Assembly (NCBI GenBank): GCA_964441495.1
Contig: CAYTXV010000002.1
Span: 9,168-73,167, forward strand
DNA: 64,000 bases
Direction: 5' to 3'
Origin: an uncultured Candidatus Saccharibacteria bacterium
GTDB taxonomy: Bacteria > Patescibacteriota > Minisyncoccia > Phycocordibacterales > UBA9973
Both the position numbers and the translations under genes were made by a program. Shown piece after piece: positions 30,210-56,234 of the stretch. A model generated the notes under the pieces. It was not told the DNA's origin and did no database searches. It worked only from the letters and a program-made list of their open reading frames with translations. Each line of letters starts with the position of its first letter. Position 1 is the first letter of the stretch.

Positions 30210-30219
30210 ACTCACCACT

Positions 30220-30484: not shown

Positions 30485-32263
30485 ATGTTCGCGTCTATCA
30501 AACAGTTCTATCGATCGCACAACAAAACACTCATCGCGCTTGCGGCCGCAAGTGTGTTCTCGGTACTCACTGCATACGCAACTCCTCCTGGATCTCCATA
30601 CACCGCAGGTGCAACCCTTGATCCTGCATGTGCACCAGGAGATACCAACTGTAGTGTACTCATCATCCCTGATCAGACAGGGAACAGCGGAGAGTATTTG
30701 ACAACTAACGGCACGACTCTAAGCTGGGCGAGTGTACCCGGAGGAAGTTCGCTTATCGGATCAACATCAGCTAGTGGAAGTGGTGAGACATGGCTTGGGT
30801 ACGGCGCCGGGACAGGAGGTTCAGCTAGTGATACTGTATTTATAGGGAACGATGCTGGTGGTAATGCGACCAGCGCAACTAACGCGGTATTTGTGGGTGG
30901 AGGTGCGGGGTATCTTGCAACAAATGCTCAAGTTTCAAACTTTATTGGAAGTCAAGCAGGGCTTAACGCTACAAATGCACAGTATTCAAACTTCATTGGA
31001 TCCCAAGCTGGAAAAAATGCATTAAATGCTTTTAGTTCAAACTTTATTGGGGATCAAGCAGGGTACGGAGCAGCAAATGCAACGAATTCTGTTTTTATCG
31101 GAAAAAGCGCTGGACTTAATGTCGCAAGTGATAATACCTATAGCACGAGTTTTCCGCCAGCATATTTTTGGAGTGTTTTTATTGGAGATAGCGCTGGTAG
31201 TGCTGCAACTGATGCGTATCGATCTGTTTTTATCGGCTCTTTCAGTGGTCAAAATGCAGTAAATGCTTCAGAGAGTGTTTTTATAGGAGAACAAGCTGGT
31301 GCGGGTGCTGGAAACGCAACCTATTCGATTGCTATTGGTAAGAAGGCTGGATTTAACGCCACAAATGCAGACGAAGCAACATTTATAGGTGCTTTTTCGG
31401 GAAACACTGCTGCAAATGCAGACAATTCAACTATGCTTGGTTTTAATGCAGGAAACGGTGCAACCAATGCTGCAAACTCAATTTTTATTGGTTACGAGGC
31501 AGGGCTGAGTGATACAGTCGACAATACCGGAGGTTCAACTTCTATCTTGATTGGAAATAGTACTGCTACTGGTGGTTTTGTAGATAGTATTGCGCTTGGT
31601 ACTGGCGCAACCAACACCGCCTCCAACCAGTTCATGATCGGCTCCACCACGCGCCCTATCGACATCACCCGTTGGAACGGGAGTGCAAGCACGCAATGTA
31701 CGCTCACCACTGGTACTGGTATCGCGTGTACTTCAGATGAACGTCTCAAGGAAAACATCACTACACTCGGAGACGACACACTTTCTAAACTTCGAAACAT
31801 CGACACCGTCACCTTCACCTGGAAGAACGCACTCTCAGATACCACGCAGATCGGTTTCATCGCACAGAACCTTGAACAATACTTCCCTCAGCTTGTTGCA
31901 ACAGACACTGACGGCTACAAGAGTGTCTACTACGCACAGATGACCCCGATCCTTACCAAAGCATTGCAGGAGCTTGATAGCAAAGTCGATGCGCTTGCTG
32001 GGCTTGATACTGCAACAAGCTTTATGGAAAGTATCGCTGCATGGCTTGCAGATGCTGCAAATGGTATACAGAAACTCTTTGCAAAAGAAATTGAAACAAC
32101 AACGCTTTGCGTCGCAGATGAGTCTGGCGCCAAGACATGTATCACCAAAGCGCAGCTCGACACACTCCTCGGACAGCAACAGGAAGTACTGCCACCTCAA
32201 GACCTACAAAAAACTACTCCCGAAGAAATAACTACATCACCATCCGATGAAACAAGTAACTAA
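30485..32263 (+). CDS. tail-fibre-like surface protein with a C-terminal peptidase-S74 intramolecular-chaperone domain
   Basis: 592 aa with a signal/TM. About 15 degenerate repeats follow the pattern N(A/S)xxSxFIGxxAGxxATNA. The C-terminus has TSDERLKENITTL...IGFIAQNLEQYFPQLV...YKSVYYAQMTPILTKALQELDSKVDAL, the hallmark of the endosialidase/tail-fibre chaperone. Confidence 0.75.
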   Translation: MFASIKQFYRSHNKTLIALAAASVFSVLTAYATPPGSPYTAGATLDPACAPGDTNCSVLIIPDQTGNSGEYLTTNGTTLSWASVPGGSSLIGSTSASGSGETWLGYGAGTGGSASDTVFIGNDAGGNATSATNAVFVGGGAGYLATNAQVSNFIGSQAGLNATNAQYSNFIGSQAGKNALNAFSSNFIGDQAGYGAANATNSVFIGKSAGLNVASDNTYSTSFPPAYFWSVFIGDSAGSAATDAYRSVFIGSFSGQNAVNASESVFIGEQAGAGAGNATYSIAIGKKAGFNATNADEATFIGAFSGNTAANADNSTMLGFNAGNGATNAANSIFIGYEAGLSDTVDNTGGSTSILIGNSTATGGFVDSIALGTGATNTASNQFMIGSTTRPIDITRWNGSASTQCTLTTGTGIACTSDERLKENITTLGDDTLSKLRNIDTVTFTWKNALSDTTQIGFIAQNLEQYFPQLVATDTDGYKSVYYAQMTPILTKALQELDSKVDALAGLDTATSFMESIAAWLADAANGIQKLFAKEIETTTLCVADESGAKTCITKAQLDTLLGQQQEVLPPQDLQKTTPEEITTSPSDETSN

Positions 32264-36748: not shown

Positions 36749-39463
36749 CTACTGAAATCGTGCCATGATCTCGGCTTCGACTTCCTCTTTAGGACGGCCG
36801 TACTTGAGGTATGAGAGCTCTTTGAGTTTCTCGGCAACAGTCGGGTTGCCCTGCGGAGGAAATGGGGTGACGGAGTTGAACGGCTTGGCAGGGACGCCAC
36901 CGACGAGCATTTTGATATAGCAGTTGAGGTTTTGGAGCTTGATGATGTCAGCTGGGGTAAAGACAGGTGCAAACTGCTGCTCAAACACCGCTGCATTCTC
37001 AGGTGAGACGCGGTGTACCACCATCGTGCCGACGTTTCCAAAGATTGCGTTTTTGATGTTTTCTTGGAGCTGTTCGATGTACTGATGGGCGACAGTGAGC
37101 GATAGGCGGTACTTGCGTGCTTCTGAGAGGATCGTCGAGATAGAGTCGGTGGTGACGTTCTGAAACTCATCGATGTAGAGATAGAAGTCGTTCACTGCTT
37201 GTTTGCCGACGATGTCCACACGAGAGAGTGCTGCCATCGTTATCTTGCCGACGAGGAGGAGGCCGATGAGGTTTGAGTTGATGTCACCAAGCCGACCTTT
37301 GGAGAGGTTCACAAGGAGGATTTTCTTTTCATCCATGATTTGGCGGAAGTTGAGTACGCTTTGTTGCTGCGCAACAACCGGGCGCATGATGTCGTTGGAG
37401 ATGAAGACATCAAACTTGTTGGTGATGTAGGGGACGAAGTTGGCAAGCGCACTCTCACCAGTTGTCTTTTCGGCATTTTGCCAGAACTGTTTGATGATCG
37501 GGTTTTTGCAGCGCTCAAGTTTCATATCGCGAAATGCTTTGTCAGAGAGGACGCGTCCGATCTCAAGGAGTGTCGAGCCAGATGCGGGGTCCTCCATCAC
37601 AAGTCCGCACGCATTGCGGAAGTACTGTTCAAACATCGGACCACCAGCAACCTTCATATCAAAGAGTTTGTTAAAGATCGCAAGGAGTTCGTTGATAACA
37701 AAGATCTTTTGCTCAGGGAAGCGCTCGTCGTACTCGAGCATGTTGAGCCCCATCGGACGCGCAGTATGTGCTGGATCAAAGTAGATGACGTCGTCGATGC
37801 GCTCAGGAGGGATGTTGGCAAGGATGTGATCGATATCGGTGCCGTGTGGATCGATGAAGCAGACACCATCACCGTTTTTGATGTCTTGGATAATCATGTT
37901 TTTGAGAAAGACGGTCTTACCAGTACCAGTCTGACCGATGACATAGCAGTGACGAACACGGTCTTCGCGGGCAAAGATAATCGGTGTTTGCTGTCCGCGG
38001 TATGTGTTGGTACCAAGTGTGATACCTGTCTGCGCAGGCAGGCCTGAACCTTGCGAAAAGGTGGGCGCGGGTGCACTTGCTGCAGAGGATTCTCGGAGTT
38101 CGGGTGCAGGAGTGATGCCGACGGGGAAATGAAAGAGTGTCGCGAGCTCGTCGATGTTGAGCGGAAACTGCGCATCTTGGCGAAGTGTACGAAATGTAAA
38201 GTCGCGGATTGTTTGGGGAAGCGCTTTGGCAGAGACGTCATACCAGACGAGTGAGTTGCCACCGACGAGTGCAAACTGCGCAAACGATGCCTTGATAGTC
38301 TGCAGGATGCTCGCTGCGCGAGTACTCGCTCCAGCAGTTGCGATGATGCGGATACCTGTACCGACAACCTGAGATTTGTTTTTGGTGTTCAACAGCTCAA
38401 GAGTACGCGTGTCGAGCGGCTTTGGTTCGTCGGACTTTTCTTCTTTGGGTGACTCAAAGAGTGAGAGAAATGTTTTGCCAAACTCTGCACCGATTGACGC
38501 GTTTGCTTCTTTGTAGAGCTCTTTGACGGTGGTACCAGGCGTTTGCGCACCTTCGGCGAGCTTGGTGTAGAGCGCGTTTGCACCCCACTGGTCGCGACTG
38601 ATCACAAACTGTATCGCTGCGCCTTCACCAGACTGTTCGAGTTGTGAAAGGGACGCGATGAGTGCTGCGAGTGGATCGTGTTCGAACTGTGCATCGGTGT
38701 TGAGCGGCAGGTAGTGATCTTCTTTGAGACCTGCGACACTTGCGGCGATGGCAGGACTTGCAGTGCCAAATATATTGTAGTCATCGACAACCTCATCGAT
38801 GATCGCAGTTGGGTAGTATGCGTGGACCAGCTTCTCAAATGTCGCGCCATACTCAGCTGGTACTGCTCCATAGAGCGCGATATCACGCGAACTGTTCTGT
38901 ACTGCAAGCTCAAGGACATAGTAGTCTCTATCGAGGAGTCCGATCATACCCGCATAGAACTGCTTCATCGCTTGGATGAAGCTTTTGAACGCAACATCAC
39001 CTGCTCCTGTCGGAAGTGTCACCGCAAAGAGTGAGTGACGAAGTTCACGTTCAAGCGTGCTACGGTCTTTGAGTCCCGGGATCGCGCCAACGGTGTGCAG
39101 GTACTGCACGAGGAAGCGGTGAAAGTCATCCGCAAGGTGTGGGTCGTTCATTGCTTGGACAACATCGAGCGCATTTTTTACTCCTTTGTCGAGCATGAGC
39201 GCAAAGAGTTCTTCTATCTTGTGGTCGTGTGTTTCAGGTTTGAGTCTTAGAATGATACGCTCTGTTTCATGAGGAGCGAGCTTTTGTGTTTCATGGATGA
39301 AGTTTGTTGCTTCGGCATGCGCGTACTGTTCGATCGTTGTTTTTGCAGCACTTTCGATGTTGGCATGAGGCACTGATTGCGCGATGTACTCTCGGTGTGA
39401 CTGGGCACCGAGCCACGCGATTTCTTGCTTTGGCGTTGCAAGTGTTTCTTTGGGAGCGAGCAT
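36749..39463 (-). CDS. VirD4/TraG/TraD-like coupling-protein ATPase with a large atypical N-terminal domain
   Basis: 904 aa. The C-terminal half has Walker A VIGQTGTGKT, Walker B FYLYIDEFQN and ARKYRLSLTVAHQYIEQL. The N-terminal ~470 aa have no TM helices and no family I recognise. Confidence 0.75.
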   Translation of the reverse strand: MLAPKETLATPKQEIAWLGAQSHREYIAQSVPHANIESAAKTTIEQYAHAEATNFIHETQKLAPHETERIILRLKPETHDHKIEELFALMLDKGVKNALDVVQAMNDPHLADDFHRFLVQYLHTVGAIPGLKDRSTLERELRHSLFAVTLPTGAGDVAFKSFIQAMKQFYAGMIGLLDRDYYVLELAVQNSSRDIALYGAVPAEYGATFEKLVHAYYPTAIIDEVVDDYNIFGTASPAIAASVAGLKEDHYLPLNTDAQFEHDPLAALIASLSQLEQSGEGAAIQFVISRDQWGANALYTKLAEGAQTPGTTVKELYKEANASIGAEFGKTFLSLFESPKEEKSDEPKPLDTRTLELLNTKNKSQVVGTGIRIIATAGASTRAASILQTIKASFAQFALVGGNSLVWYDVSAKALPQTIRDFTFRTLRQDAQFPLNIDELATLFHFPVGITPAPELRESSAASAPAPTFSQGSGLPAQTGITLGTNTYRGQQTPIIFAREDRVRHCYVIGQTGTGKTVFLKNMIIQDIKNGDGVCFIDPHGTDIDHILANIPPERIDDVIYFDPAHTARPMGLNMLEYDERFPEQKIFVINELLAIFNKLFDMKVAGGPMFEQYFRNACGLVMEDPASGSTLLEIGRVLSDKAFRDMKLERCKNPIIKQFWQNAEKTTGESALANFVPYITNKFDVFISNDIMRPVVAQQQSVLNFRQIMDEKKILLVNLSKGRLGDINSNLIGLLLVGKITMAALSRVDIVGKQAVNDFYLYIDEFQNVTTDSISTILSEARKYRLSLTVAHQYIEQLQENIKNAIFGNVGTMVVHRVSPENAAVFEQQFAPVFTPADIIKLQNLNCYIKMLVGGVPAKPFNSVTPFPPQGNPTVAEKLKELSYLKYGRPKEEVEAEIMARFQ
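38025..38042. repeat. 18-bp palindrome copy 3, one mismatch (CCTGTCTGCGCAGGCAGG), in frame in the VirD4-like gene, encodes LPAQTG
   Basis: Read directly from the sequence. (39463-38041) is divisible by 3. Confidence 0.95.
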
Positions 39464-43582: not shown

Positions 43583-46222
43583 ATGAAATATTTTATTCGC
43601 GCAATAGCATTTGTTATTGCAATCATGGCGTTTGGAGTGAGCTCTGCACACGCAGCGCAGTACTATGTTGACTCGACATATACGGGTTCAACATCAAACG
43701 GGGCACTCGCAACTCCATGGAAGACACTCTCACAAGTGCAAGCAGCAGCACTGCAGCCAGGTGATATCGTGAGCTTCAAGCGTGGCACTAGCTATCCTGG
43801 CACTCTTACCATCAACCGCTCTGGTACTGCTGGAAACCCTATTACTTTCAATGCCTACGGTACTGGCGCAAACCCAAGGCTTGTTGGTTCATATGATGCG
43901 ACGACCAATACATCAACGAGTATCACAAAGCTCGTATATGCCTACAATCGAGGCTATCTCACGTTTGACGGTATCGATGTGATCGACCCTGCAATGGATC
44001 CAAACAATCGTACGCTCCAGTCAAAGATTGAGCGGGCGTTTTATATGGATGGTACGACAAACAATGTCATCATCAAAAACTGCAAAATCAGCCTTGTTGG
44101 TGTCGCTATCTATCTGGTTGGCCCTAACAACACTGTAGAGAACTGTACGATCGAAAATCTCCGTATGGTGAGAAACACAAATGATGGCCCACCACCAGGC
44201 AACGATGATGACTATGGTGCAAACCCGCTCGTAATCTCTAGTTCAAATAACAGGATCATCAATAACTATTTCAGTAGTTGTTGGGCACAGTCGTACGACT
44301 ATGGTGTTGACGGTGGGGCAGTAGATATCTACGCAGACAAACCGCTTATCGAAAATAACTTTATCGGATACAACACGTTTGTAGACTGTAATGGTGTTCT
44401 TGAGATAGGTGGAAGTGGTGGAAATACTGTAAACAATACAGTAGTTGCGTATAATAAAGCTATCAATAACGGTTCTACTCTCTATGTAAGTAATTCAGGA
44501 ACCTTCTTGACGTATACAAACAATACACAATTTTATAACAACGTGTTTGTAGAAACAGAACCATATCGTGTTTCTTCAAGTTCGATGTTTGCATTTAAAT
44601 CTGCACCAACAGCTGCAAATAGTTTGGTTTTGAAAAACAACATCATTCAACTTTACGGTACGATCGATGTTGGGCGAAGTCAGTGGTCAACCCCTGGAGC
44701 TCTTGTAAACCAAAACAATGTGTATAAGCTTGGTTCAGGAAGTGTGCTCAACTTTACACAAAGTCCAACTGAAGTCATTACGACAAGTAACTTCTGGACC
44801 AACACTTCTGCAACCGATCCCGCAAGTTGGGATTATCGACCACTTGCAGGAAGCACAATCGTTGATCGCGGTACCAACATTGGGTACACCACAGACTTTG
44901 GTGGTAACAATGTTCCTCAAGGCGCTGCACCAGACGCTGGTATCTACGAATACTCAAGTACAACAACTCCTGACACTACTGTACCAACCGTCTCACTCAC
45001 CGCACCAACTGCAGGTGCAACTGTCTCAGGTACCGCAACAACACTCTCTGCAAATGCAACAGACAATATCGGTGTTGTTGGTGTGCAGTTTAAGCTCAAC
45101 GGTACCAACCTTGGCTCAGAAGACACTGCTGCACCATACACAACCTCATGGAACACAACTACTGTTGCAAACGGTACCTACACCCTCACTGCAGTTGCAC
45201 GCGACGCAGCAGGGAATAGTAGTACCAGTACTGGAGTATCGGTAACAGTATCAAACACTACTGCCGATACTACCGCACCAACAGTAACCTTTACTGCACC
45301 AGCGGCAGGGGCAACAGTTAGCGGAACAGTTTCAGTAACTGCAGACGCAACTGACAACGTCAGTGTTACAAGTGTTACCTTCAACCTTGATGGGCTCCTT
45401 CACACAACCGATACAACTGCACCATATAGTGCAAACTGGATCACTACAGGTATCGGTGATGGTGTGCACACATGGACCGCAGTTGCGCGTGATGCAGCAG
45501 GCAATGTCAGTACAACCGCAACACGAAGCTTTACCGTTAATAATGCAGTAGCTGCAAACCCATCAGTCCCAACAGGTCTTACAGCAACTGCTGTTACTCC
45601 AACACAGATAAATCTTTCATGGAACCCTTCAACAGGTAGTGTTGGTGGATATGAGATTTATCGAAATGGAGTAAATATCACACACACCATCGGTGCTGGC
45701 GCTACTAGTTATGTTGATACTGAAGTACTTGCGTCGACAACGTATACTTATGCTGTGTCTGCATATCACGCATCAACGTCATGGGAATCAGCTCAATCTG
45801 GTGCAGTTTCTGTCACTACCCCAAGCGCAGGAAGTATGTATAAAACAACTGCAAAAGTTAATGTTCGCGCAAATCCGAGTGTCGGTGTTACAGGGACAAT
45901 CCTCGGTACTCAAGCAAAAGGATCAATCGGTACAGTAACCGGTGGACCAGTTAATAACAACGGGTACACATGGTACAAACTCGATTTCCCTTTTGGAGCA
46001 GATGGATGGGTTGCTACAAGAAATCTCGTATTATATTCAGCTGCTCGAACAGCTTCAAGTAGTACAGCTCTTACAGACCCCTCAACGTCAACCGCAAAAA
46101 CAACAGGCAGTACTTCAGTTTCATCACTTGAAGCACTCGAACTCCTTCAACAAGCGTCTCGTTCAACTTCAACCGCGGAAGCACTCCGTTTGATTGAACA
46201 AGCAAAACAGTTGATGCAATAA
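43583..46222 (+). CDS. large secreted multidomain protein: parallel beta-helix + 2 Ig-like + FN3-like + SH3b-like domains
   Basis: 879 aa with a signal peptide. It has beta-helix-type N-rich repeats, two tandem ~95-aa repeats (TAPTAGATVSGT...TAVARDAAGN), an FN3-like segment (PTGLTATAVTPTQINLSWNPS) and an SH3b-like segment (AKVNVRANPS...GYTWYKL). Confidence 0.65.
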   Translation: MKYFIRAIAFVIAIMAFGVSSAHAAQYYVDSTYTGSTSNGALATPWKTLSQVQAAALQPGDIVSFKRGTSYPGTLTINRSGTAGNPITFNAYGTGANPRLVGSYDATTNTSTSITKLVYAYNRGYLTFDGIDVIDPAMDPNNRTLQSKIERAFYMDGTTNNVIIKNCKISLVGVAIYLVGPNNTVENCTIENLRMVRNTNDGPPPGNDDDYGANPLVISSSNNRIINNYFSSCWAQSYDYGVDGGAVDIYADKPLIENNFIGYNTFVDCNGVLEIGGSGGNTVNNTVVAYNKAINNGSTLYVSNSGTFLTYTNNTQFYNNVFVETEPYRVSSSSMFAFKSAPTAANSLVLKNNIIQLYGTIDVGRSQWSTPGALVNQNNVYKLGSGSVLNFTQSPTEVITTSNFWTNTSATDPASWDYRPLAGSTIVDRGTNIGYTTDFGGNNVPQGAAPDAGIYEYSSTTTPDTTVPTVSLTAPTAGATVSGTATTLSANATDNIGVVGVQFKLNGTNLGSEDTAAPYTTSWNTTTVANGTYTLTAVARDAAGNSSTSTGVSVTVSNTTADTTAPTVTFTAPAAGATVSGTVSVTADATDNVSVTSVTFNLDGLLHTTDTTAPYSANWITTGIGDGVHTWTAVARDAAGNVSTTATRSFTVNNAVAANPSVPTGLTATAVTPTQINLSWNPSTGSVGGYEIYRNGVNITHTIGAGATSYVDTEVLASTTYTYAVSAYHASTSWESAQSGAVSVTTPSAGSMYKTTAKVNVRANPSVGVTGTILGTQAKGSIGTVTGGPVNNNGYTWYKLDFPFGADGWVATRNLVLYSAARTASSSTALTDPSTSTAKTTGSTSVSSLEALELLQQASRSTSTAEALRLIEQAKQLMQ

Positions 46223-47304: not shown

Positions 47305-48813
47305 ATGACCAAAACAATCTCACTCAAAAACATATCGCACTCTTTTCTAGAGAGACCAATCCTCGAAGGTGTTTCATTTAAAGTCGACGCGGACGAACGT
47401 CTCTGTATCGTGGGTGATAACGGTACCGGCAAGTCGACCCTCCTCAAAATCATTACCGGTGCAATTGAGCCCAGTAGCGGCACTGTTGCAACTACTGGAC
47501 ATGTGCGCACGTACTATGTTTCGCAGGAGTTTAGCAAAGAAGACGCAGTGCGTACTATAGAAGAATACATACTTGCACACGCATCAGTGACGCTCTACAA
47601 AAAGATTTTTGCCTTTGGTAAAACACTCGGCTTTGATCTTGAGAAAAATACCACAAAAGAATGCGGACTACTCTCCGGGGGACAACAAAAAATTCTTGCA
47701 CTCTCTGTTGGACTTGCTGTTGCACCAGATTTTTTATTACTCGATGAACCAGAAAATCACCTTGATATTGTTTCTCGTCTTGAGCTTGTCAAACTACTGA
47801 AAGCATATCGCGGAGGTGTTCTTTTTGTTTCACACGATCGACTCATGATCGATAGTATTGCAAGCAAGGTTGCCGAAGTGACCCAAAAGAAAGTATTTAT
47901 CTCTGAAGGCGGCTACCAAGACTACATCGACAAGCGGCTCGAGCGCATTGCGGGGCTCCAGCGTGCATATGATCAGGTTACCAAACGTATCAGAGCGCTC
48001 GAAGCGATGCTTCCCATCCTTGAAGCAAAAGCGTTTCGCGGTAAAGATGTGCCGACTTATCTCAAAAGGAAAGCTGAGCTTGTAGAGCTCAAAGCACAAC
48101 AAAAAGAAGAAGGTCGAGCAGACGATCGGCGTACTTCGATCAGACTCCAAAAGAGTACAAGTGATCTTCATAACGGTAAACTTCTTTGTCGTATCACTGA
48201 TGCATCTTTTAAATACGATGATGCTAAGGGTTTCATCTTTAAAGATATTTCAGTCGACATCCGTACCGGAAGCCATATCGTACTCCTTGGTCGCAATGGA
48301 TCAGGGAAGTCAACCTTTCTCAAGGGTCTTACTGGTAACTTGGCACTAAGCACTGGAAGTATGAGCTGGGTAGAAGGTATACAAACGAGCTACTTCGACC
48401 AACATGCAGACTTTGATCCACAGAAGACCGCGCTTGAGGTTGTAACCGAAGCACTTGGTAAGCCTGACAAAGAAAGTCGCGCAGCGCTTGGTGCGATGAA
48501 GTTTGCCTCTGACAAAATGGAGACGTGCACGGGCGAACTCTCGGGAGGCGAGCGTATGAGACTTCGTTTTGCAATCGTATTTGGAAAGAACCCTGACTTC
48601 ATCATCCTTGACGAGCCGACGAATCACCTCGACGAAGTGACCTGGCAGATCCTCCTTGATGCCTGCAACAACACCAAGAGCACCATCCTGCTCGTGACCC
48701 ACGATTACGAATTTATCCAAGAATTCAAAAACAAAACCTTTTGGCTGATCAAAAACCAGACGATAAAGGAGAGACATAAGGATTTGGAGGAATTGATTGA
48801 GGAATTGCGGTAA
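47305..48813 (+). CDS. ABC-F family ATPase (two ABC domains, no TM domain)
   Basis: 502 aa with two Walker A motifs (GDNGTGKST, GRNGSGKST), two LSGG signatures (LSGGQQ, LSGGER) and two Walker B motifs (LLLDEP, IILDEP). Confidence 0.85.
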   Translation: MTKTISLKNISHSFLERPILEGVSFKVDADERLCIVGDNGTGKSTLLKIITGAIEPSSGTVATTGHVRTYYVSQEFSKEDAVRTIEEYILAHASVTLYKKIFAFGKTLGFDLEKNTTKECGLLSGGQQKILALSVGLAVAPDFLLLDEPENHLDIVSRLELVKLLKAYRGGVLFVSHDRLMIDSIASKVAEVTQKKVFISEGGYQDYIDKRLERIAGLQRAYDQVTKRIRALEAMLPILEAKAFRGKDVPTYLKRKAELVELKAQQKEEGRADDRRTSIRLQKSTSDLHNGKLLCRITDASFKYDDAKGFIFKDISVDIRTGSHIVLLGRNGSGKSTFLKGLTGNLALSTGSMSWVEGIQTSYFDQHADFDPQKTALEVVTEALGKPDKESRAALGAMKFASDKMETCTGELSGGERMRLRFAIVFGKNPDFIILDEPTNHLDEVTWQILLDACNNTKSTILLVTHDYEFIQEFKNKTFWLIKNQTIKERHKDLEELIEELR

Positions 48814-48830
48814 GGTGATATATTTGTTAT

Positions 48831-49421
48831 ATGAAAAAAATCGGACAAGGGTGGCAATACTCAGTGTATGATCTTGAAAACGGAAGAGTGTATAAACGAA
48901 AGAATTCTCGATGGGAAGCATATAAAGTTATGTGGCGAAGCACTCTTCCGTTTCCTCCAATATGGAAGTTTGCCAAGTTCTATGATTCAGTAGGGAATGA
49001 AGCAAGAGATTCTTTAAAGAAAATTGAAGAGACATCACTAGATGCAGGTTTATTTGCAAATTCTAAAATACTTTCAAATGGTATAGATTACGAACAAGAT
49101 AAAATAATTCCAATTCAAGATTATTTCCAATCGCACAGCATCGAGGAAGGAAAAGTTGTAATCGATAAGTTTATTGTGTTTGTAAAATTTCTTATGGCAC
49201 ACAATATGGTTGATAAAAGTTTTGCAATCGGAAAAAACTTCGGACTTAATAGTAACGGAGAAGTCGTGCTTTGTGATATAGGTGAGATTTGGTCCGATCC
49301 AGAAAATATTCAAAAATTGATTATGGAAAAAATATGGTCGAAGCACTATGTTGTAAAAATATTTCCAAATAATCACCTGAAAGATTATTTCTTGCAAGAA
49401 ATGGATAAACATTTCAAGTAA
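48831..49421 (+). CDS. hypothetical protein (possibly a minimal kinase-like fold)
   Basis: 196 aa, AT-rich. The N-terminal GQGWQYSVY...VYKRK resembles a G-loop plus Lys, and VLCDIGE resembles DFG. The assignment is weak. Confidence 0.4.
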   Translation: MKKIGQGWQYSVYDLENGRVYKRKNSRWEAYKVMWRSTLPFPPIWKFAKFYDSVGNEARDSLKKIEETSLDAGLFANSKILSNGIDYEQDKIIPIQDYFQSHSIEEGKVVIDKFIVFVKFLMAHNMVDKSFAIGKNFGLNSNGEVVLCDIGEIWSDPENIQKLIMEKIWSKHYVVKIFPNNHLKDYFLQEMDKHFK

Positions 49422-49422
49422 T

Positions 49423-49451
49423 AAAAAACCACTCATCTCGAGTGGTTTTTT
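49423..49451. terminator. bidirectional intrinsic terminator between convergent genes
   Basis: aaaaaaccactc-atctc-gagtggtttttt. Confidence 0.75.
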
Positions 49452-49462
49452 ATTTGCAGGAA

Positions 49463-49993
49463 TTATTTCCCAAACTTTTCTTTGTAGAGCTCTTGGGATT
49501 TTTGGATTGCTTTGAGGGCTTCAGCTTTGTCTCCGATAGAGTCTATAGCTACTTCTTTCTTTTGGATTTGCTTGTAGGTGAGGAAGAAGTGTTCGATCTC
49601 TTTGAGAGTGTGCTTGTTTACATCAGCGAGATCTTGGACATGATCCCAGCGCGGATCTTTCTCGGGGACTGCGATGATCTTGGCATCTGAGTCGCCGTCA
49701 TCGACCATGTTGACGATTGCAACAGGGCGGACTTTGACAAGTACTCCTGGGGCAAGTGCATATGTGGTGAGGACTACCACGTCGAGTGGGTCGCCGTCGA
49801 GCCAGTGAGATTGTGGCATGAAGCCATAGTCAAACGGATAGTCTTGTGATGTGTGCATCGCACGATCGAGCGCGATAAGTCCTGTTTCTTTGTCGATCTC
49901 GTACTTGTTTTTGGATCCTTTGGGGATCTCGATGATGACATTGATGCTGTTTGGGGCATCTTTGCCAGCAGTGATATCGTGGAGGAGATTCAT
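49463..49993 (-). CDS. ppa: inorganic pyrophosphatase (family I)
   Basis: 176 aa from MNLLHDITAGKDAPNSINVIIEIPKGSKNKYEID, with DGDPLDVVVL. The start lies 4 nt after the nusA stop. The track ORF is over-extended. Confidence 0.9.
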   Translation of the reverse strand: MNLLHDITAGKDAPNSINVIIEIPKGSKNKYEIDKETGLIALDRAMHTSQDYPFDYGFMPQSHWLDGDPLDVVVLTTYALAPGVLVKVRPVAIVNMVDDGDSDAKIIAVPEKDPRWDHVQDLADVNKHTLKEIEHFFLTYKQIQKKEVAIDSIGDKAEALKAIQKSQELYKEKFGK

Positions 49994-49997
49994 ATGA

Positions 49998-51191
49998 TTA
50001 TGCGTGTGTTTCGTCTGATATTTCTTCTGTTGATAGCGTTTTGAGTGAGTCGAGAGATTGGAAGTCGTCACCTTCGAGGTTGTCGCCTTCGGTTTCAACT
50101 GGTGCGTCAGAGCCTTTGATGTCTATCTTCCATCCAGTGAGCCGCGCAGCGAGGCGTACGTTTTGTCCACCTTTACCGATAGCGAGGGAGAGCTGGTCAG
50201 GAGTGACTTCGATGGTTGCCTTGTGTTCTTCTTCGCTGAGCTCGATACCGATGACTTTTGCAGGAGAGAGTGATTTTGTCACAAACTCTTCTGGGTCAGG
50301 AGACCATTCGATGATGTCGATTTTCTCACCAGAGAGTTCGTTCATGACTGTTGAGACGCGAACACCTTTCTGGCCGACACATGAGCCGACTGGATCGATG
50401 TTTGCGTCCTCAGTCCATACTGCGATCTTGCTTCGACTACCTGGTTCGCGAGCGATTGATTTGATCTCAACAACACCACTTGCTACTTCAGGAGACTCAT
50501 ATGCAAAGAGTTTCTCAAGAAACTTGGGGTGTGTGCGTGAGATGCGAAGTGTGATACCACGAGGAGATTCTTCGACATGGTAGAGGTAGCCGCGGATACG
50601 TGAGCCCCGAGTGTAGCGCTCACCAGGGATCTGCTCCTGAGGAGGGATGATACCTGTTGCGCGGTTAAAGTCGACGTAGACCATGCCACGTTCAACCTTT
50701 TGGACATAGCCAGAGATGATGTCTCCCTCGCGAGTACCAAATTCATCGAGGATCGAGGTGCGCTCTGCTTCGCGGATGCGCTGCATGATGACCTGCTTTG
50801 CAGTTTGTGCAGCAATACGACCAAAGTCGTCTTTGGGTTCGAGAGAGAACACGATCTCGTCACCGACAACAGCGTTTGCTTTGATGATGCGCGCATCTTC
50901 AAGGAGGATGTGCTTCTCTTCGTTGTAGTGTTCGCGCTCATCTGTTTCGCTTGCTGGTTCTTCTTCGAATCGTACGAGTGTCTCGTCGACAACAGTCTTG
51001 ACCTGTTCAAAGTCGACAGTGCCCGCATCGAGATTTATCTGCGCGCGAACGATCTGTCCCTTTTTTCCGTATTCTTTCTTGTATGCAGCAGCGAGTGATT
51101 GTTCAATCGCATCGATAAGTTTGTCTCGAGCGATACGACGTTCGCTTTCGAGTTGTTCGATTGCTGCTTTGAGTGCTTTGATATCCAACAT
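49998..51191 (-). CDS. nusA: transcription termination/antitermination factor NusA
   Basis: 397 aa from MLDIKALKAAIEQLESERRI, with S1 and two KH domains (GSCVGQKGVRV, AIGKGGQNVRLA). Confidence 0.9.
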   Translation of the reverse strand: MLDIKALKAAIEQLESERRIARDKLIDAIEQSLAAAYKKEYGKKGQIVRAQINLDAGTVDFEQVKTVVDETLVRFEEEPASETDEREHYNEEKHILLEDARIIKANAVVGDEIVFSLEPKDDFGRIAAQTAKQVIMQRIREAERTSILDEFGTREGDIISGYVQKVERGMVYVDFNRATGIIPPQEQIPGERYTRGSRIRGYLYHVEESPRGITLRISRTHPKFLEKLFAYESPEVASGVVEIKSIAREPGSRSKIAVWTEDANIDPVGSCVGQKGVRVSTVMNELSGEKIDIIEWSPDPEEFVTKSLSPAKVIGIELSEEEHKATIEVTPDQLSLAIGKGGQNVRLAARLTGWKIDIKGSDAPVETEGDNLEGDDFQSLDSLKTLSTEEISDETHA

Positions 51192-51310
51192 ATTTGTTAT
51201 TGTTATGTGATTTGTATAAACGAAAGTGCAAGTTATCAACAGAAATGCCCACCTTTCGGCGGGTTGACTCTTGCGTATGCATCATACCATAGCATATACT
51301 TTATATCAAC

Positions 51311-52384
51311 ATGACATATATACGTATACCCCACTCGATCAAGCGCGCATTGTTAGTAGTTGGAAGTTTGGTGATTGCAGGACTTGTTGCAACCAATGTT
51401 GTACTTGCAAGTGCAACTGACAATTTCTTTGGGTATGCGTGGTCAACTAACGTCGGATGGATCAAGGTCAACAACTGTGAAAGTGCAACCGATTGTACCG
51501 GACAGGGATACGGACTTCGTATAGCAACCAGCGGAGGAGATCGCAGGATCACTGGGTACGCATGGTCACCAAATATCGGGTGGATTACGTTCAATACATA
51601 CCCTCAAACCCCATGGGATCCGCGACAGTCAGGAGATACAGACGAGCAAAGACTTGCGCTTCGTTGTCCGGTTAGTACTGGGCCCGATTGTGGTGTATAC
51701 GCCAACTTTGACGCACCTGGAACTGATGCACCGCTCAGGGGCTGGGCTCGCGCATGTTCTGTATATGCCAATAACTGTGATCCTTCTAGAGGAGTTAAAC
51801 CAGATTGGATGCGTGGCGGATGGGATGGATGGATATCGCTCGGAGATACTAATCCTACTGATGGGATAAACTATGGTGTCAAAATCAACAAAACAACTGG
51901 ATCGATGAGCGGATACGCATGGGGCTCTGGTGTTGTTGGGTGGGTAGATTTTAGTGGTGTTTCTAATACAATTATTGATCAGTGTCCTATTACTCCACCA
52001 GCTCCACTCCCAGGAGGTTTTATCAACAACTGTCAAACTTGTAACCCTGGAGACCCTTGTTGGTGTGAAAAGTATCCAGGAGATCCGTTGTGTGTCGCTG
52101 TTCCTCCGTGCCCTAACCCAGTAAACGGTCAGTGTCCAAATGATCCAGGTGATCCAAACGACCCAAACAATCCTCCAGGATGTCCTGGTGGTCCGAGCGG
52201 TGGCCCAACAGGGGGCGGATGTGGTACTGATCAGTGCACAAATATCCCACCAGAATACGAGCCAGCAAACATTCTTCCACCCTATCGCCAGCTCTCCGAC
52301 GGTCGATGTCTCTGCATCCCCGGATATGTACTCAATGCTCAGTATCAGTGCGTCAAACCAGTCTACGTCGAACCAAAGCAATAA
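51311..52384 (+). CDS. secreted protein with GYAW..GWI.F repeats and a Cys/Pro-rich C-terminus (paralogue of the 32247 N-terminal region)
   Basis: 357 aa with a TM/signal. Repeats: FGYAWSTNVGWIKVNN, TGYAWSPNIGWITFN, SGYAWGSGVVGWVDFSG. The C-terminus is a CP-rich region ending in the EGF-like CLCIPGYVLNAQYQC. Confidence 0.6.
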   Translation: MTYIRIPHSIKRALLVVGSLVIAGLVATNVVLASATDNFFGYAWSTNVGWIKVNNCESATDCTGQGYGLRIATSGGDRRITGYAWSPNIGWITFNTYPQTPWDPRQSGDTDEQRLALRCPVSTGPDCGVYANFDAPGTDAPLRGWARACSVYANNCDPSRGVKPDWMRGGWDGWISLGDTNPTDGINYGVKINKTTGSMSGYAWGSGVVGWVDFSGVSNTIIDQCPITPPAPLPGGFINNCQTCNPGDPCWCEKYPGDPLCVAVPPCPNPVNGQCPNDPGDPNDPNNPPGCPGGPSGGPTGGGCGTDQCTNIPPEYEPANILPPYRQLSDGRCLCIPGYVLNAQYQCVKPVYVEPKQ

Positions 52385-52395
52385 TATACACATAT

Positions 52396-52719
52396 ATGCA
52401 AGACATCATCACTCCAACCTCATATCAGACTTCAGTCACAGAGCCACAACACCCCAAGCACAAGACACTCATCTGGGCACTCAGCGCGTTTATACTTCTT
52501 GTGGTAGTTGTCGTACTTGTCATGCAGTACAACAAACGTCCTGCACTAGCTCCACTTTCTCCGCTTGAGCAATTGGAACTTCTGGAAAAATCTTCACAAC
52601 CAGTATCTCTCTCACCTGAACAACAGTTTGAGCAGGTGCGGAAGCTTGAAGCCGTAGGAGGTAGCACGCAATCTTCATCGGTATCTGATAAACTAGAGAT
52701 GCTTAAAAAACTGCAATAA
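52396..52719 (+). CDS. small membrane-anchored hypothetical protein
   Basis: 107 aa from the ATG at 52396 (MQDIITPTS...), with the TM LIWALSAFILLVVVVVLVM. The upstream part of the track ORF overlaps the previous gene. Confidence 0.4.
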   Translation: MQDIITPTSYQTSVTEPQHPKHKTLIWALSAFILLVVVVVLVMQYNKRPALAPLSPLEQLELLEKSSQPVSLSPEQQFEQVRKLEAVGGSTQSSSVSDKLEMLKKLQ

Positions 52720-52724
52720 TAACT

Positions 52725-53588
52725 ATGAAACAATCACTTAAACTTTTTATACTACTTTTGACGATTGGTCTCGGTATGGCCTCTATCGGTAATGCTGCGC
52801 GATACGGTGGCTTCTATACAGAACCGACTCTATCTGCTCCTCCTGGTAACAATGCAGAGGTTGAACCGATTAATACTAGCGAACAGCTTCAAGCAAAAGG
52901 TGGGTCACTTACCGTTACAACATTTGTCAATGAGGGTGGGGCGATTATACAAGGAGAAACCTTTTTCAAAGGATATCTTTATGGTGGGGTACCTTTAGGT
53001 AATACTACTCCTATTGCTTTTGGTGATATTTCTAACCCTACGTCTATTGAGGCAACAGGAACTATCGGTATTGCTTATCCACAACAGGTACCACTAGAAA
53101 GACTGACATTTCAATCAGATACACTCATCCCTCAACAGGGTAGCTGGTCATATGTGTGTGCAGATAGTGAAGGGACGCTAACTACTGACTGTCCAGACAT
53201 GTGTCCAAATATTGATGGAGTACAGCCTACTATTCCTTTAGATATGTCTATCAATCCTCAAACAGGAAACTGTGACCTTGAGCTTACGGTCAACGCCCCG
53301 ACAAGTTGTCAGTATCAAATGATTGCTCGCAAGCTCGATGATACGCATGCGAAGTTTACACTCGAACCAATCGGACAAGATGGTACCCCGTATCTATACA
53401 GTCCAACTACTGGAAGTAATATCATGTCTATAGTTATAAAGTTTGAAAATGGTGCAATGAGAACACTCAGTGCACCCCAAGGGCAAATTGCAAGCTATGA
53501 CTTTGGGGCAGTTACCAATCACATCAGGATACTCGGAGTACTTCCCGGTACCATCAACGGTAGAGAGGTTTGTTGGAGGGGTTATTAA
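52725..53588 (+). CDS. secreted hypothetical protein sharing an N-terminal module with the next two genes
   Basis: 287 aa with a signal peptide, then TEPTLSAPPGNNAEVEPINTSEQLQAKGGSLTV. Confidence 0.5.
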   Translation: MKQSLKLFILLLTIGLGMASIGNAARYGGFYTEPTLSAPPGNNAEVEPINTSEQLQAKGGSLTVTTFVNEGGAIIQGETFFKGYLYGGVPLGNTTPIAFGDISNPTSIEATGTIGIAYPQQVPLERLTFQSDTLIPQQGSWSYVCADSEGTLTTDCPDMCPNIDGVQPTIPLDMSINPQTGNCDLELTVNAPTSCQYQMIARKLDDTHAKFTLEPIGQDGTPYLYSPTTGSNIMSIVIKFENGAMRTLSAPQGQIASYDFGAVTNHIRILGVLPGTINGREVCWRGY

Positions 53589-53609
53589 TTAAACAGTATT
53601 GGTATAACT

Positions 53610-54968
53610 ATGAAGCACAACATTGGTACATCTATAAAACTCGTCATCATCGGACTCTTGGTTGCAGGAACAATCAGCTATGTCTCCGCAACAGAGTGGG
53701 TGCCTCGTCCTGTCAACCCTCCAAATAACAACAGGCCAACACTTCTTAATGTTGGTAGTACTCGACAAGTGAAAATAGGCGGGTTCGCGCTTGGTTCGTT
53801 TAATACACTTCAAGGTGCTCAGTTTAATTCAACACTACACCTTGCTGGTATGGTACGAGGAGGTACCCCAGATATGGTAAATTCTGTTGTCTACTTTGGA
53901 CAAGATGCAGGAGTTGCACCATTTGTTGATTCTCTTGTAGAGGGGGGCTTGTTTGCAAAAAAGGGGCTTCGTGCGGGATCGCTTTCAAACTATAGCAATA
54001 AAGCCGTATGCGCAAATATAGAGGGTAAACTCATGCTTTGTGACTCAGGAGGTGTTCCGTTTGTAGGTCTTGGGGCATTTCCAAACCCTGTTTCTTCTGG
54101 AAGCACCACACAACTTTCTGTTACTGCAAAAAAGTTCGATACGATAAGTAGTTGCGTGATCGATCAAGGTGTGGGTGCGGTTAGTATGACTCAGGTAGCA
54201 ACAGGTACATGGCAGGGTACGATATCATCAACACCTATTACTACGCCTACTATATTTACTGTTGAGTGTACAGGAACATCTTCTGGTATACCTACCACCT
54301 TGTCAGCAACTCGTTTTGTAGGTATCACCAATGCAACTTCTGGATACTACGCCCACTGTTTCATTGCAGATACTCAGGTCACCATGGCTGATGGTTCCAA
54401 GAAAAACATTCAAGATGTGAAAATCGGTGATGTGCTCAAGGGCGAGACAACCAACAATACAGTCCTCGGGTATCATCAGCCAACACTCGATGACGGCAAG
54501 TTGTATGGGTTCAACGGTGGGGAAGCGTTTGTAACCGCAGAACACCCGTTCATGACAACCGAAGGGTGGAAGTCTATCAATCCAGAAAAGACGCGCAGAG
54601 AACACATCGGTCTACTTGTGAACAAGCTTGAACTTGGTGATGTTCTTGTAACAGAAAAAGGATTGGTCACCGTCAAAAGTATCGAGAGTAAAGATGCTCC
54701 AAGTACCACCAAGCTGTACAACTTTATCCTCGACGGTGATCACACGTACTATGCTGATGGGTACCTTGTGCACAACAAAGAAATCTGTAACCAACAGTAC
54801 GCATGTGGTGAAAATATGATCTGTATCGATGGAGATGGTATGGCTACTCCAGGCGCCGGCTCCTGCTCACTTCCTTGTGATCCAAGCGATCCAATTACTG
54901 AGGGGGGTGTTTGTAAGCCAGGAGATGTCCTTACTTGCTCTCCACAAGGAATTAAGGTTTGTCTATAA
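53610..54968 (+). CDS. secreted protein with an internal Hint (bacterial intein-like) domain and a Cys-rich C-terminal tail
   Basis: 452 aa. The N-terminal module reads WVPRPVNPPNNNRPTLLNVGSTRQVKIGGFAL. The Hint domain spans 54357..54776: CFIADTQVTMADGSKKNIQDVKIGDVL ... TAEHPF ... HTYYADGYLVHN, followed by K rather than C/S/T. A 64-aa tail with 9 Cys follows. Confidence 0.75.
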   Translation: MKHNIGTSIKLVIIGLLVAGTISYVSATEWVPRPVNPPNNNRPTLLNVGSTRQVKIGGFALGSFNTLQGAQFNSTLHLAGMVRGGTPDMVNSVVYFGQDAGVAPFVDSLVEGGLFAKKGLRAGSLSNYSNKAVCANIEGKLMLCDSGGVPFVGLGAFPNPVSSGSTTQLSVTAKKFDTISSCVIDQGVGAVSMTQVATGTWQGTISSTPITTPTIFTVECTGTSSGIPTTLSATRFVGITNATSGYYAHCFIADTQVTMADGSKKNIQDVKIGDVLKGETTNNTVLGYHQPTLDDGKLYGFNGGEAFVTAEHPFMTTEGWKSINPEKTRREHIGLLVNKLELGDVLVTEKGLVTVKSIESKDAPSTTKLYNFILDGDHTYYADGYLVHNKEICNQQYACGENMICIDGDGMATPGAGSCSLPCDPSDPITEGGVCKPGDVLTCSPQGIKVCL

Positions 54969-54973
54969 AATAT

Positions 54974-55423
54974 ATGAAAAAATATCAAGTCATCATTACT
55001 ATATGTGCGATCGCGATTCTAGGATTCACTGCTGTTCGAGCAGAATGGTCTGATCCACAGTCTGGAGAAGGTAGCGATACTGTGTACATACCAGTAAACT
55101 CAAGTTCTGCTCTTCAAATAAAAACCGAGGGACTTGCTGTCGGGGGAACGTTTCTTGTAACCGATAACGCACAGTTTGACCAGGGTGTATTTATACCCGA
55201 AACAGCGACAATTTTCGGAGGAGATCCTTTATATGTTACGCAAGGAACTCCAAACAATCCTTCTCCTAGAACTATTTACTTTGGTGGTCCAAACAATGAG
55301 GTGGGTATTGAAGCAAACGGTACTTTTTATGTCAGAAATGAAATTACAACTCCTACACTCTCTAACACAACATTAAAACAAGTCTGTGCCGATCAGTACG
55401 GATACCTCAGTCTCTGTCAGTAA
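54974..55423 (+). CDS. small secreted hypothetical protein with the same N-terminal module
   Basis: 149 aa from MKKYQVIITICAIAILGFTAVRA, then EWSDPQSGEGSDTVYIPVNSSSALQIKTEGLAV. Confidence 0.5.
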   Translation: MKKYQVIITICAIAILGFTAVRAEWSDPQSGEGSDTVYIPVNSSSALQIKTEGLAVGGTFLVTDNAQFDQGVFIPETATIFGGDPLYVTQGTPNNPSPRTIYFGGPNNEVGIEANGTFYVRNEITTPTLSNTTLKQVCADQYGYLSLCQ

Positions 55424-55434: not shown

Positions 55435-55460
55435 AAAAACCGCTCGATTGAGCGGTTTTT
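55435..55460 (+). terminator. intrinsic terminator
   Basis: aaaaaccgctc-gatt-gagcggttttt. Confidence 0.8.
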
Positions 55461-55465
55461 GCTTG

Positions 55466-55474: not shown

Positions 55475-55481
55475 CATGCGT

Positions 55482-56234
55482 ATGAACTATCTTGTTGCAA
55501 ACTGGAAAATGGCACCCGAGACGCTCGGTGAAGCGCTTCGCCTTGCCAAGGCAACAACATCGCTTGCCAAAACATACAAAAAATCCCTCACAACTATCGT
55601 TGCTACGCCGTACTTGTATATCCCATCTATCATTGCAAAGCACCGCACGCTTGCTATAGCCGTACAAGATGTTAGTACCGCAACAACAGTAGCGGCAACC
55701 GGATCGATCGGTGCCTCTATACTCAAAGCAAACAAGGTTGGGTACTGTATCATCGGACACTCGGAGTGTCGCGCACAAGGTGATACAAACGAAATAGTAA
55801 AGACAAAATTTGACCTACTCCTTGAAAAAAAGATTGTTCCTATCTTATGTGTCGGAGAGCGGGTTCGTGACGAGCAAGGGTGGTACTTGAGTGGTATCAA
55901 GGATCAGATAGAAACAGCGTTTGCTGGTGTACCCAAGCAGACGCTCAAACGTGTCATCATCGCATATGAACCAGTATGGGCGATTGGCGCCGATGCTGTG
56001 CGCGAAGCGACACCGGTGGAGTGTCGTGAAATGATCATGTTTATCCGTAAACTCCTCAGTGATCTCTATGATCACAAAACCGCCGAGCAGGTTGCGATCC
56101 TCTACGGTGGTTCAGTATCCGAAGATAATGCAAAACTGTTTGTCGAGGAAGGACAGGCGGACGGACTGCTTGTCGGGCGAGTCAGTCTCGATAGTAAACG
56201 GCTAACCAAACTCGCGGCACGTATGAGTGCATAA
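55482..56234 (+). CDS. tpiA: triosephosphate isomerase
   Basis: MNYLVANWKM..., IIGHSECR, AYEPVWAIG, YGGSV. An alternative ATG lies at 55476. Confidence 0.9.
   Translation: MNYLVANWKMAPETLGEALRLAKATTSLAKTYKKSLTTIVATPYLYIPSIIAKHRTLAIAVQDVSTATTVAATGSIGASILKANKVGYCIIGHSECRAQGDTNEIVKTKFDLLLEKKIVPILCVGERVRDEQGWYLSGIKDQIETAFAGVPKQTLKRVIIAYEPVWAIGADAVREATPVECREMIMFIRKLLSDLYDHKTAEQVAILYGGSVSEDNAKLFVEEGQADGLLVGRVSLDSKRLTKLAARMSA

Follow-up and report, generated by a model that had tools for sequence, protein, structure and literature searches.

The exosporium of the Bacillus cereus group carries the collagen-like glycoproteins BclA and BclB, whose conserved N-terminal motif targets them to the basal layer. 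S-layer homology (SLH) domains and other wall-binding modules head surface proteins of monoderm bacteria, and the sortase-assembled pili of Gram-positive bacteria consist of three secreted subunits that form base, shaft and tip. Here we compare with these systems a five-gene operon (genes G1 to G5) in a 64-kb stretch of DNA ('the window') from Candidatus Saccharibacteria, which belong to the Patescibacteria, or candidate phyla radiation (CPR). Its last three genes, G3, G4 and G5, encode paralogous, predicted secreted proteins that share an N-terminal domain of about 120 amino acids (aa), which we call the N-domain or N-module. Patescibacteria are mostly obligate epibionts, and their host-attachment molecules beyond type IV pili are largely unknown; the family to which the N-domain belongs is a concrete, testable candidate, be it for a second class of surface appendages or for a system of anchoring.

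The similarity to BclA and BclB lies in a short N-terminal motif that is found on several fibre proteins with different distal parts, and in the collagen repeats that some members of the N-domain family carry. On the other hand, the sequences are not similar, and the Bacillus proteins are assembled inside the mother cell, whereas the signal peptides of N-domain proteins point to Sec secretion. As a functional analogy, the N-module may work like an N-terminal docking tag for trimeric fibres. With SLH and other wall-binding modules the N-domain shares its place at the N-terminus, straight after the signal peptide, on many unrelated surface proteins; it differs in having no match in Pfam or NCBIfam and in being predicted to be extended rather than compact helical or SH3-like. 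An operon of three paralogous secreted subunits is also reminiscent of sortase-assembled pili, but G3-G5 lack a C-terminal LPXTG sorting signal (their C-termini read ...EVCWRGY, ...GIKVCL and ...LSLCQ), and the operon contains no sortase gene. A further comparison is offered by the type IV minor pilins or tip adhesins PilX1 and PilX2 of the Saccharibacterium N. lyticus TM7x, paralogues that likewise combine a conserved N-terminus with C-terminal domains that vary (PMC11623550), and in one clade N-module genes are adjacent to PilB and PilC genes. However, G3-G5 lack both a class III signal peptide and an N_methyl motif, their hydrophobic segment is not followed by a long alpha-1 helix, and most N-module loci have no type IV pilus genes nearby.

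Our favoured reading, to which we give about an even chance, is that the locus is a surface-fibre or appendage operon of Patescibacteria whose subunits use the N-domain for anchoring, co-assembly or both. The vertically inherited operon would then encode parts of a cell-surface structure. The N-domain, and more widely its first ~36 residues, would be the cell-proximal head of a large, Patescibacteria-type family of secreted proteins with fibre- or adhesin-like distal parts. As an all-beta or irregular domain of ~120 aa, it would dock or co-assemble G3-G5 at the envelope, with G1 (a protein with GYAWS repeats) and G2 (a small membrane protein) acting as base or assembly factors. The distal parts, namely the C-terminal domain of G3 and the Ig-like region of G4, would be displayed. 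If the role in anchoring or assembly is true, the module could serve to find the surface proteome of uncultured CPR from nothing more than genome sequences.

G3, G4 and G5 share an N-terminal domain

The original prediction described a module of about 40 aa that follows the signal peptides of three consecutive products, and quoted one peptide from each gene. We confirmed the three peptides in G3, G4 and G5. The accompanying claim that the sequences diverge completely downstream of the module did not hold, as the proteins remain homologous as far as about aa 145-160, where an invariant pair of cysteines (VCAD..G.L..C; VCA(D/N)..G.L..C in the pairwise BLASTP alignments) closes the shared region. 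The unit common to G3-G5 is thus a domain of ~120 aa, which begins after a Sec-type signal peptide of ~23-26 aa and closes at the conserved Cys pair, while the short motif is a real unit in the wider family, as explained below.

With BLASTP, G5 is similar to G3 (E=2e-5, 126 columns) and to G4 (E=4e-7, 115 columns), while G3 and G4 reach only E=0.15. Comparisons of the three ortholog sets with hhalign, which span 117-140 columns, give a probability of 98.1 % and E=7e-14 over 140 columns for G3 and G4, 99.1 % and E=1.7e-18 for G3 and G5, and 99.3 % and E=3.8e-20 for G4 and G5. Each of the three proteins aligns over the full N-domain with a 150-sequence alignment of the family. The hidden Markov model (HMM) of the family matches G3, G4 and G5 with E-values of 2.5e-31, 5.6e-37 and 1.2e-34, respectively (all three are among its 150 training sequences), and finds no further member in the 64-kb window.

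An independent 40-state HMM, limited to the mature motif, was trained on 46 unique sequences from other lineages in metagenomes, without their signal peptides. It recognizes G3 (E=2e-9), G4 (E=2e-8) and, more faintly, G5 (E=0.011-0.016). None of the other open reading frames (ORFs) among the 466 in the window scored above 5.0 bits (E=1.9), and none of 900 composition-matched shuffles above 3.7 bits. Because the motif-only HMM scores the three genes above the other window ORFs and the shuffles, the motif is not the generic low-complexity region adjacent to a signal peptide that the original prediction had named as a possible objection. The weak BLASTP value for G3 and G4 could suggest that the similarity is due to chance or composition, that is, to a signal peptide followed by a Pro/Asn-rich stretch of low complexity. 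Given the profile-profile E-values, the motif-only HMM with its shuffles and a family of 1008 clusters (see below), we regard this explanation as refuted.

The N-domain defines a large, previously unannotated family

The original prediction proposed an alignment and a genome-wide HMM search of the module. A large family was revealed when 1.84 billion cluster representatives were searched exhaustively with a profile: 1008 proteins matched the N-domain with E<=1e-3, 249 with E<=1e-10 and 14 with E<=1e-30. The family has at least 1008 clusters at 50 % identity. Homolog searches based on a word index had shown 7-10 close relatives among the matches listed. The match nearly always covers residues 1-145, in proteins of 137-545 aa. 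In the 150-sequence alignment, C138 and C148 (G5 numbering throughout) are invariant, and P40, Q48, K50, L54, F60, G82, G104, G116 and G143 are nearly so. The domain opens with the motif (A)W.xPxxxPPxxNxxxP(I/L)NxGxxxQxKxGxLxV and ends with a hairpin stapled by the two cysteines.

Not one of the 150 aligned members has a Pfam match over the N-domain, and elsewhere in these proteins Pfam finds only Hint-type families, in 4 members, and DUF4215, in 3. Searches of NCBIfam, PHROGs, PADLOC and PDB sequences likewise gave no match for the N-domain, apart from a spurious nanobody match (E=0.32) when the family profile was compared with PDB sequences. Where the source databases name the family members, the name is 'hypothetical protein', and we found no description of the module in the literature. 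The N-domain family is therefore large, genuine and previously unannotated.

A metagenome scan seeded from a different sub-clade yielded 37 loci. In many of these, only the first ~61 HMM positions match, corresponding to the signal peptide and ~36 mature residues, and are followed by unrelated sequence. The consensus of this short unit is AWTGPTATPPGNNTDAPINVGSTSQVKTGGLSVNTF, and that of the wider short motif, which is the module of the original prediction, is AWTGPTATPPGNNTDAPINVGSTSQVKTGGLSV. Since many loci match only there and continue with unrelated sequence, the short motif is a real and separate evolutionary unit.

The distal parts of family members in other metagenomic contigs include collagen triple-helix repeats (with Scl-like matches), a phage tail Collar domain and Gly_rich_2; further members have an Ig-like region plus a Hint domain, or no distal part. 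Two of these, the collagen repeats and the tail Collar domain, are features typically seen in trimeric fibres. The pattern of a common anchoring or assembly module, as originally suggested, thus applies at the level of the family, in which the same N-module heads all of these distal parts, though it does not apply to this locus in the sense of alternative tips (see below). N-module genes occur singly or in arrays, for example six in a row in locus L042 (3230-7432) and three in a row in L016, and two family proteins (P0014 and P0016) have two complete N-domains in tandem within one chain.

These family-wide properties also bear on a different explanation, in which the N-domain is a module that binds the cell wall or S-layer, like SLH, LysM or GW, and tethers secreted proteins independently of each other. 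The paralogues would then not co-assemble, and G1 and G2 would be unrelated neighbours. Such a module would be expected to sit, as the N-domain does, right behind the signal peptide of proteins whose distal parts vary widely. The many family genes that occur singly without a G1-family neighbour also fit, and tandem N-domains in one chain resemble repeated wall-binding modules. However, searches of G3, G5 and the N-domain of G4 against Pfam and NCBIfam at E<=1 gave no match, so there is no similarity to the known wall-binding families SLH, LysM, GW or CWB. In addition, the arrangement of a G1-like gene, a G2-like gene and three paralogues is kept in several divergent lineages, and the chain in the structure models is extended and non-globular, unlike a compact binding domain. 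We consider the wall-binding explanation unlikely, but it is one of the main rivals, together with a link to type IV pili and a Hint-released, Cys-rich effector, which are discussed below.

As a separate observation, the motif CxNIxGxQxxxPxG recurs right after the N-domain in several members (G3, and also L014, L015, P0119, P0144 and P0152). It is also found in the C-terminal part of G1-family proteins, sometimes in two or three copies.

The operon is conserved between nusA and tpiA

Genes G1-G5 are present in the same order, with similar lengths and between nusA and tpiA, in loci L002-L009 and L012. The metagenome-assembled genomes with this operon are named uncultured Candidatus Saccharibacteria (representatives of GTDB species). 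On these contigs, the G5 orthologs have 34-61 % identity, and the family HMM finds exactly three N-domain genes in each related Saccharibacteria locus. The same plan, consisting of a GYAWS/Cys-rich protein, a small transmembrane (TM) protein and then three N-domain genes, recurs in two divergent loci. In L015 the N-domain proteins have 146, 350 and 145 aa and are followed by tpiA and pgk, and in L014 they have 141, 298 and 419 aa.

Within the core clade, the three paralogue types form unambiguous orthologous groups. Distances suggest that the type-specific clades extend to L015 and L014, but bootstrap values are weak (0.65/0.48 for type 1 and 0.13-0.17 for type 3), and we do not rely on position-specific orthology beyond the core clade. 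Windowed identity among orthologs is 0.4-0.6 in the N-domains, 0.86 in the last residues of G3 and 0.75-0.85 at the C-terminus of G1. The original prediction had envisaged alternative tips exchanged by cassette shuffling among strains. Our comparison instead found a fixed gene order, a separate ortholog of each gene and conserved C-terminal parts. The lack of hypervariability in the C-terminal parts speaks against shuffled cassettes and favours three non-redundant, co-inherited subunits. Judging from these sequence comparisons, G3, G4 and G5 are old and fixed paralogues, each with its own ortholog, rather than shuffled cassettes.

The conserved location also bears on the idea that a prophage or tail-fibre module left the cluster behind as a remnant. 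Some family members have distal parts of phage type (Collar), a Peptidase_S74 gene adjoins the operon in L015, and the non-significant matches of a fold search lean to fibre proteins. None of these fold matches is below E=1, and we do not count their fibre- or spike-like names as evidence. On the other hand, the N-domain proteins have no PHROGs match, no relatives were found by tblastn in 50,697 INPHARED phage records or in IMG/VR, the chromosomal position between nusA and tpiA is stable across divergent genomes, and the GC content of the operon resembles that of its flanks. We therefore reject a prophage remnant, to which we assign a very small residual probability. The Peptidase_S74 protein of L015 has 649 aa and is encoded just after pgk.

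The two other genes of the operon have features of their own. G1 has an N-terminal signal or anchor, four G(Y/W)AW...GW(I/V)xF units (aa 41-53, 82-94, 144-177 and 201-214), a C-terminal half that is rich in Cys and Pro (20 Cys) and a conserved C-terminal tail, VKPVYVEPKQ (52352-52381). It has no match in Pfam, NCBIfam, PHROGs or PADLOC. Its orthologs at the same position are 39-55 % identical, and the G1-family alignment has invariant W and G columns and a C-terminal (K)PxYxE tail. In seven further metagenome loci (L018, L021, L031, L034, L038, L045 and L049), a G1-family gene adjoins N-module genes. G2 has a TM segment at ~aa 25-43 followed by three amphipathic S/T-x-E-(E/Q)-x-x-x-L-x-x-L repeats. 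We placed its start from BLASTP alignments of orthologs, which begin at residue 55 of the ORF that opens with GTG. G2-like single-pass proteins with three amphipathic repeats are present in the window, L010, L014 and L015, and small TM proteins occupy the position of G2 also in L038 and L046.

The (K)PxYxE tail is kept in L010, L012, L015, L021, L034, L038, L045 and L049, and the few hundred residues before it are unrelated between lineages. This tail looks like a sorting or docking signal.

Secretion signals and structure models

In G3-G5 and in the family consensus, the N-terminal hydrophobic segment ends in a small-x-small (AxA-like) site that resembles a signal peptidase I site; in the consensus this end reads SYxxA|xW. 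Secretion by the Sec pathway with cleavage at this site is thus predicted. We considered and rejected three other classes of surface protein. G3-G5 are not expected to be lipoproteins, as the lipobox pattern [LVI][ASTVI][GAS]C is not found at the end of the signal peptide: the signal region is free of Cys in G3, G4 and the family consensus, and Cys11 of G5 (ITIC) does not fit the pattern. They do not qualify as sortase substrates, because their C-termini lack LPXTG with a hydrophobic stretch and basic tail. They are also not prepilins, because they have no class III signal peptide. The prepilin-peptidase site (Gly-1, Phe/Met+1, Glu+5) is absent from G3-G5 and from the family consensus, the N-termini MKQSLKLFILLL, MKHNIGTSIKLV and MKKYQVIITICA are without G|F..E, and neither Pfam nor NCBIfam finds an N_methyl motif in G3-G5.

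These signals are relevant to the possibility that a type IV pilus system takes up G3-G5 as non-canonical pilin-like subunits or as substrates, to be assembled onto it or secreted by it. Gene contexts in L010/L011 and L038 are suggestive: a G2-like gene, a G1-like gene and one or two N-module genes are followed directly by PilB (T2SSE), PilC (T2SSF) and N_methyl pilins. This PilB-PilC-pilin operon is on the same strand and in the same slot between nusA and tpiA (L010, 9350-15718; L038, 12880-14217). Both structure models have an N-terminal hydrophobic helix, one family member has a weak match to Shufflon_N (E=5.7e-4, below the cut-off), and minor pilins without a PilD signal have been proposed for Saccharibacteria (PMC11623550). 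However, in addition to the signal peptidase I-like site and the missing N_methyl match, no type IV pilus gene was found among the window ORFs scanned with Pfam. L010 and L038 represent a single clade (their PilB proteins are 69 % identical), and in L046 the link is a loose one, where genes on the opposite strand intervene. We judge the type IV pilus explanation to be rather improbable.

AlphaFold2 monomer models of G5 (pLDDT 75, pTM 0.41) and G4 (pLDDT 58, pTM 0.30) agree in showing an N-terminal helix, which is the signal peptide, and then a long chain with almost no regular secondary structure. The pLDDT (predicted local distance difference test) is ~55-65 over the conserved motif and 70-90 beyond it, and the terminal hairpin is bracketed by the two invariant cysteines. 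From these models we infer that the N-domain may be a segment that needs partners to fold, through oligomerization, strand exchange or docking.

A predicted intein-like domain in G4

Between its Ig-like region and a 63-aa tail, G4 contains a predicted Hint domain of the bacterial intein-like (BIL) type. The nucleophile Cys250 (AH|CFIADTQV) is position 1 of the domain, the block-B TxxH motif reads TAEH (aa 309-312), and the C-terminal His-Asn is part of LVHN (aa 386-389); all are invariant in 6 orthologs, and the +1 residue is Lys390. Five Hint-type Pfam families match G4 with E-values of 4e-6 to 2e-3, among them Hom_end_hint, Vint, PT-HINT and Hint with 9e-6 to 2e-3, and all score below the gathering cut-off. 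The ortholog profile of G4 matches Hint domains in the PDB (6y75/6tmm, E=9e-10), an intein C-terminal protein (8w20, 3.7e-6) and a 'bacterial intein-like domain' (2lwy, 1.2e-4), and the AlphaFold model of the region is of low confidence. This domain is the most conserved stretch of the operon (identity 0.86-0.94), and the six residues before Cys1 (SGYYAH) are invariant. Identity among orthologs is 0.57-0.67 in the tail, in which all 10 Cys are invariant.

A-type BIL domains have a conserved C-terminal His-Asn and undergo terminal cleavage, and their flanks are typically not ligated (Amitai 2003 and Dassa 2004, as summarized in PMC7765530). G4 resembles these domains of secreted bacterial proteins in its Cys1, TxxH, His-Asn and non-nucleophilic +1 residue, in its predicted secretion and non-housekeeping nature, and in its profile matches to solved Hint and BIL structures. 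It differs from the BIL domains described so far, which are located within hypervariable stretches of proteins that are not conserved (PMC7765530), in that the Hint domain of G4 is the most conserved part of a conserved operon. With Lys at +1, we do not expect canonical splicing; the properties of A-type BIL domains together with the catalytic residues lead us to predict that G4 cleaves itself. An N-S acyl shift at Cys250 and cyclization of Asn389 would release or rearrange an N-terminal fragment, which has the N-domain and the Ig-like beta region, and the ten-Cys tail. The conserved Hint domain would be a rare case of an intein-like domain that is apparently fixed and functionally constrained in an operon for a surface structure.

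Release of the tail could also be interpreted in terms of toxicity, with G4 as a polymorphic-toxin-like pro-protein whose pretoxin-HINT domain frees a Cys-rich effector against the host bacterium, and with the N-domain as a trafficking domain. The match to PT-HINT (PF07591, E=3.6e-4), the conserved His-Asn, which makes C-terminal cleavage chemically plausible, and the similarity of a tail with 10 invariant Cys to small disulfide-rich effectors fit this idea. However, the tail is conserved rather than polymorphic, the gene downstream of G4 is the secreted paralogue G5 and not an immunity protein, only 4 of the 150 family members have a Hint domain, and no toxin domain was detected with Pfam, NCBIfam or PADLOC. 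We hold a toxin to be quite improbable. The negative PADLOC search also led us to discard a defence system.

A more speculative possibility, to which we give a low probability, is a hitherto unrecognized surface appendage of Patescibacteria that is neither a pilus nor dependent on sortase, with subunits covalently joined by intein-like chemistry. A thioester at His249-Cys250 of G4 would be resolved by an amine of another subunit or of an envelope component, and a candidate for this amine is the Lys of the Q-x-K motif, which is nearly invariant in the shared N-module. Such a reaction would be a sortase-free analogue of the polymerization or anchoring of Gram-positive pili. The invariant SGYYAH and the exceptional conservation of the Hint domain are compatible with covalent joining.

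Points against the proposed surface appendage

Returning to the favoured reading of a surface-fibre or appendage operon, several of our results weigh against it. The monomer models are of low to moderate confidence (see the pTM values, predicted template modelling scores, above) and yield no fold for the N-domain, and Foldseek searches against PDB and BFVD returned nothing below E=1. Signal-peptide cleavage was judged by eye, and the hydrophobic helix could stay in place as a membrane anchor. All scores for Hint-type Pfam families are under the gathering thresholds. Many metagenomic N-module genes have no G1-family neighbour, and L010 has a single family member, so that the triplet is not obligatory. 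According to Tn-seq tables, the cultivated S. epibionticum ML1 has no such operon at nusA or tpiA, which are not neighbours there.

Gene map and other genes in the window

The five genes are all on the plus strand and tightly packed, with intergenic gaps of 5-21 nt (Table 1). The operon was originally described as a cluster of five genes for secreted proteins, bounded by nusA and by a strong terminator plus tpiA. The boundaries are correct, but G2 is a single-pass membrane protein and not a classic secreted one. A pattern scan of the presumed promoter region detected only weak sigma-70-like matches. The hairpin and T-run that mark the end of the operon before tpiA are absent from the list produced by a terminator pattern scan, probably because A/T runs lengthen the stem.

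Table 1. Features of the operon and its flanks (window coordinates)
Feature	Coordinates	Strand	Remarks
nusA	49998-51239	-	upstream flank; inorganic pyrophosphatase gene also upstream, minus strand
Divergent nusA/G1 intergenic region	51240-51310	.	presumed operon promoter, from inspection of the sequence
G1	51311-52384	+	357 aa; ORF; orthologs at same position
G2	52396-52719	+	107 aa; start placed by ortholog alignment
G3 (paralogue 1)	52725-53588	+	287 aa; ORF, family HMM
G3 signal peptide		+	~aa 1-23
G3 N-domain	52794-53204	+	aa 24-160
G3 mature N-terminal motif	52818-52916	+	aa 32-64; module of the original prediction
G3 CxNIxGxQxxxPxD motif	53202-53243	+	aa 160-173; then conserved C-terminal domain ending CWRGY
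G4 (paralogue 2)	53610-54968	+	452 aa; ORF, family HMM
G4 signal peptide		+	~aa 1-26
G4 N-domain	53688-54044	+	aa 27-145
G4 mature N-terminal motif	53697-53792	+	aa 30-61; module of the original prediction
G4 beta-rich Ig-like region		+	~aa 178-237
G4 Hint (BIL) domain	54357-54776	+	aa 250-389
G4 tail	54777-54965	+	aa 390-452; 63 aa, 10 Cys
G5 (paralogue 3)	54974-55423	+	149 aa; ATG start matches start of database proteins
G5 signal peptide		+	aa 1-23
G5 N-domain	 	+	aa 24-149; nothing else follows
G5 mature N-terminal motif	55043-55141	+	aa 24-56; most divergent copy
Intrinsic-terminator-like hairpin	~55436-55462	+	CCGCTC GATT GAGCGG then TTTTTG; read by eye
tpiA	55476-56234		downstream of hairpin; pgk after tpiA

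Other genes in the window could also encode surface proteins. An 879-aa Big_7/fn3 surface protein is encoded at 43583-46222 (plus strand), and orthologous large Big_7 proteins are found near the operon in L002, L003 and L012. At 30485-34187 (plus strand) lies another candidate surface-fibre locus, which is without the N-module. It encodes a 592-aa protein with a Peptidase_S74 intramolecular-chaperone domain of the fibre/spike type and, after it, a 646-aa CarboxypepD_reg/SdrD_B-like protein. A cluster of five tRNA genes precedes this locus (29226-30410), and a tyrosine recombinase (Phage_integrase) is encoded ~5 kb upstream of that cluster (23217-24131).

Genes resembling those of type IV secretion systems are located on the minus strand at 563-14535 and 36749-39463. 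They include an SLT transglycosylase with a T4SS_pilin-like segment (563-2365), a VirB4/TraG P-loop ATPase (3321-5147) and an ATPase similar to coupling proteins (TrwB/TraG-D; 36749-39463), and between them are several large unannotated ORFs, one of which encodes 1073 aa (6735-9956). Lastly, the GC content dips to 0.31-0.34, compared with ~0.47 around it, at 48750-49500. The dip lies over a 196-aa ORF (48831-49421) that is unannotated and has no Pfam match, and this low-GC stretch may have been acquired recently.

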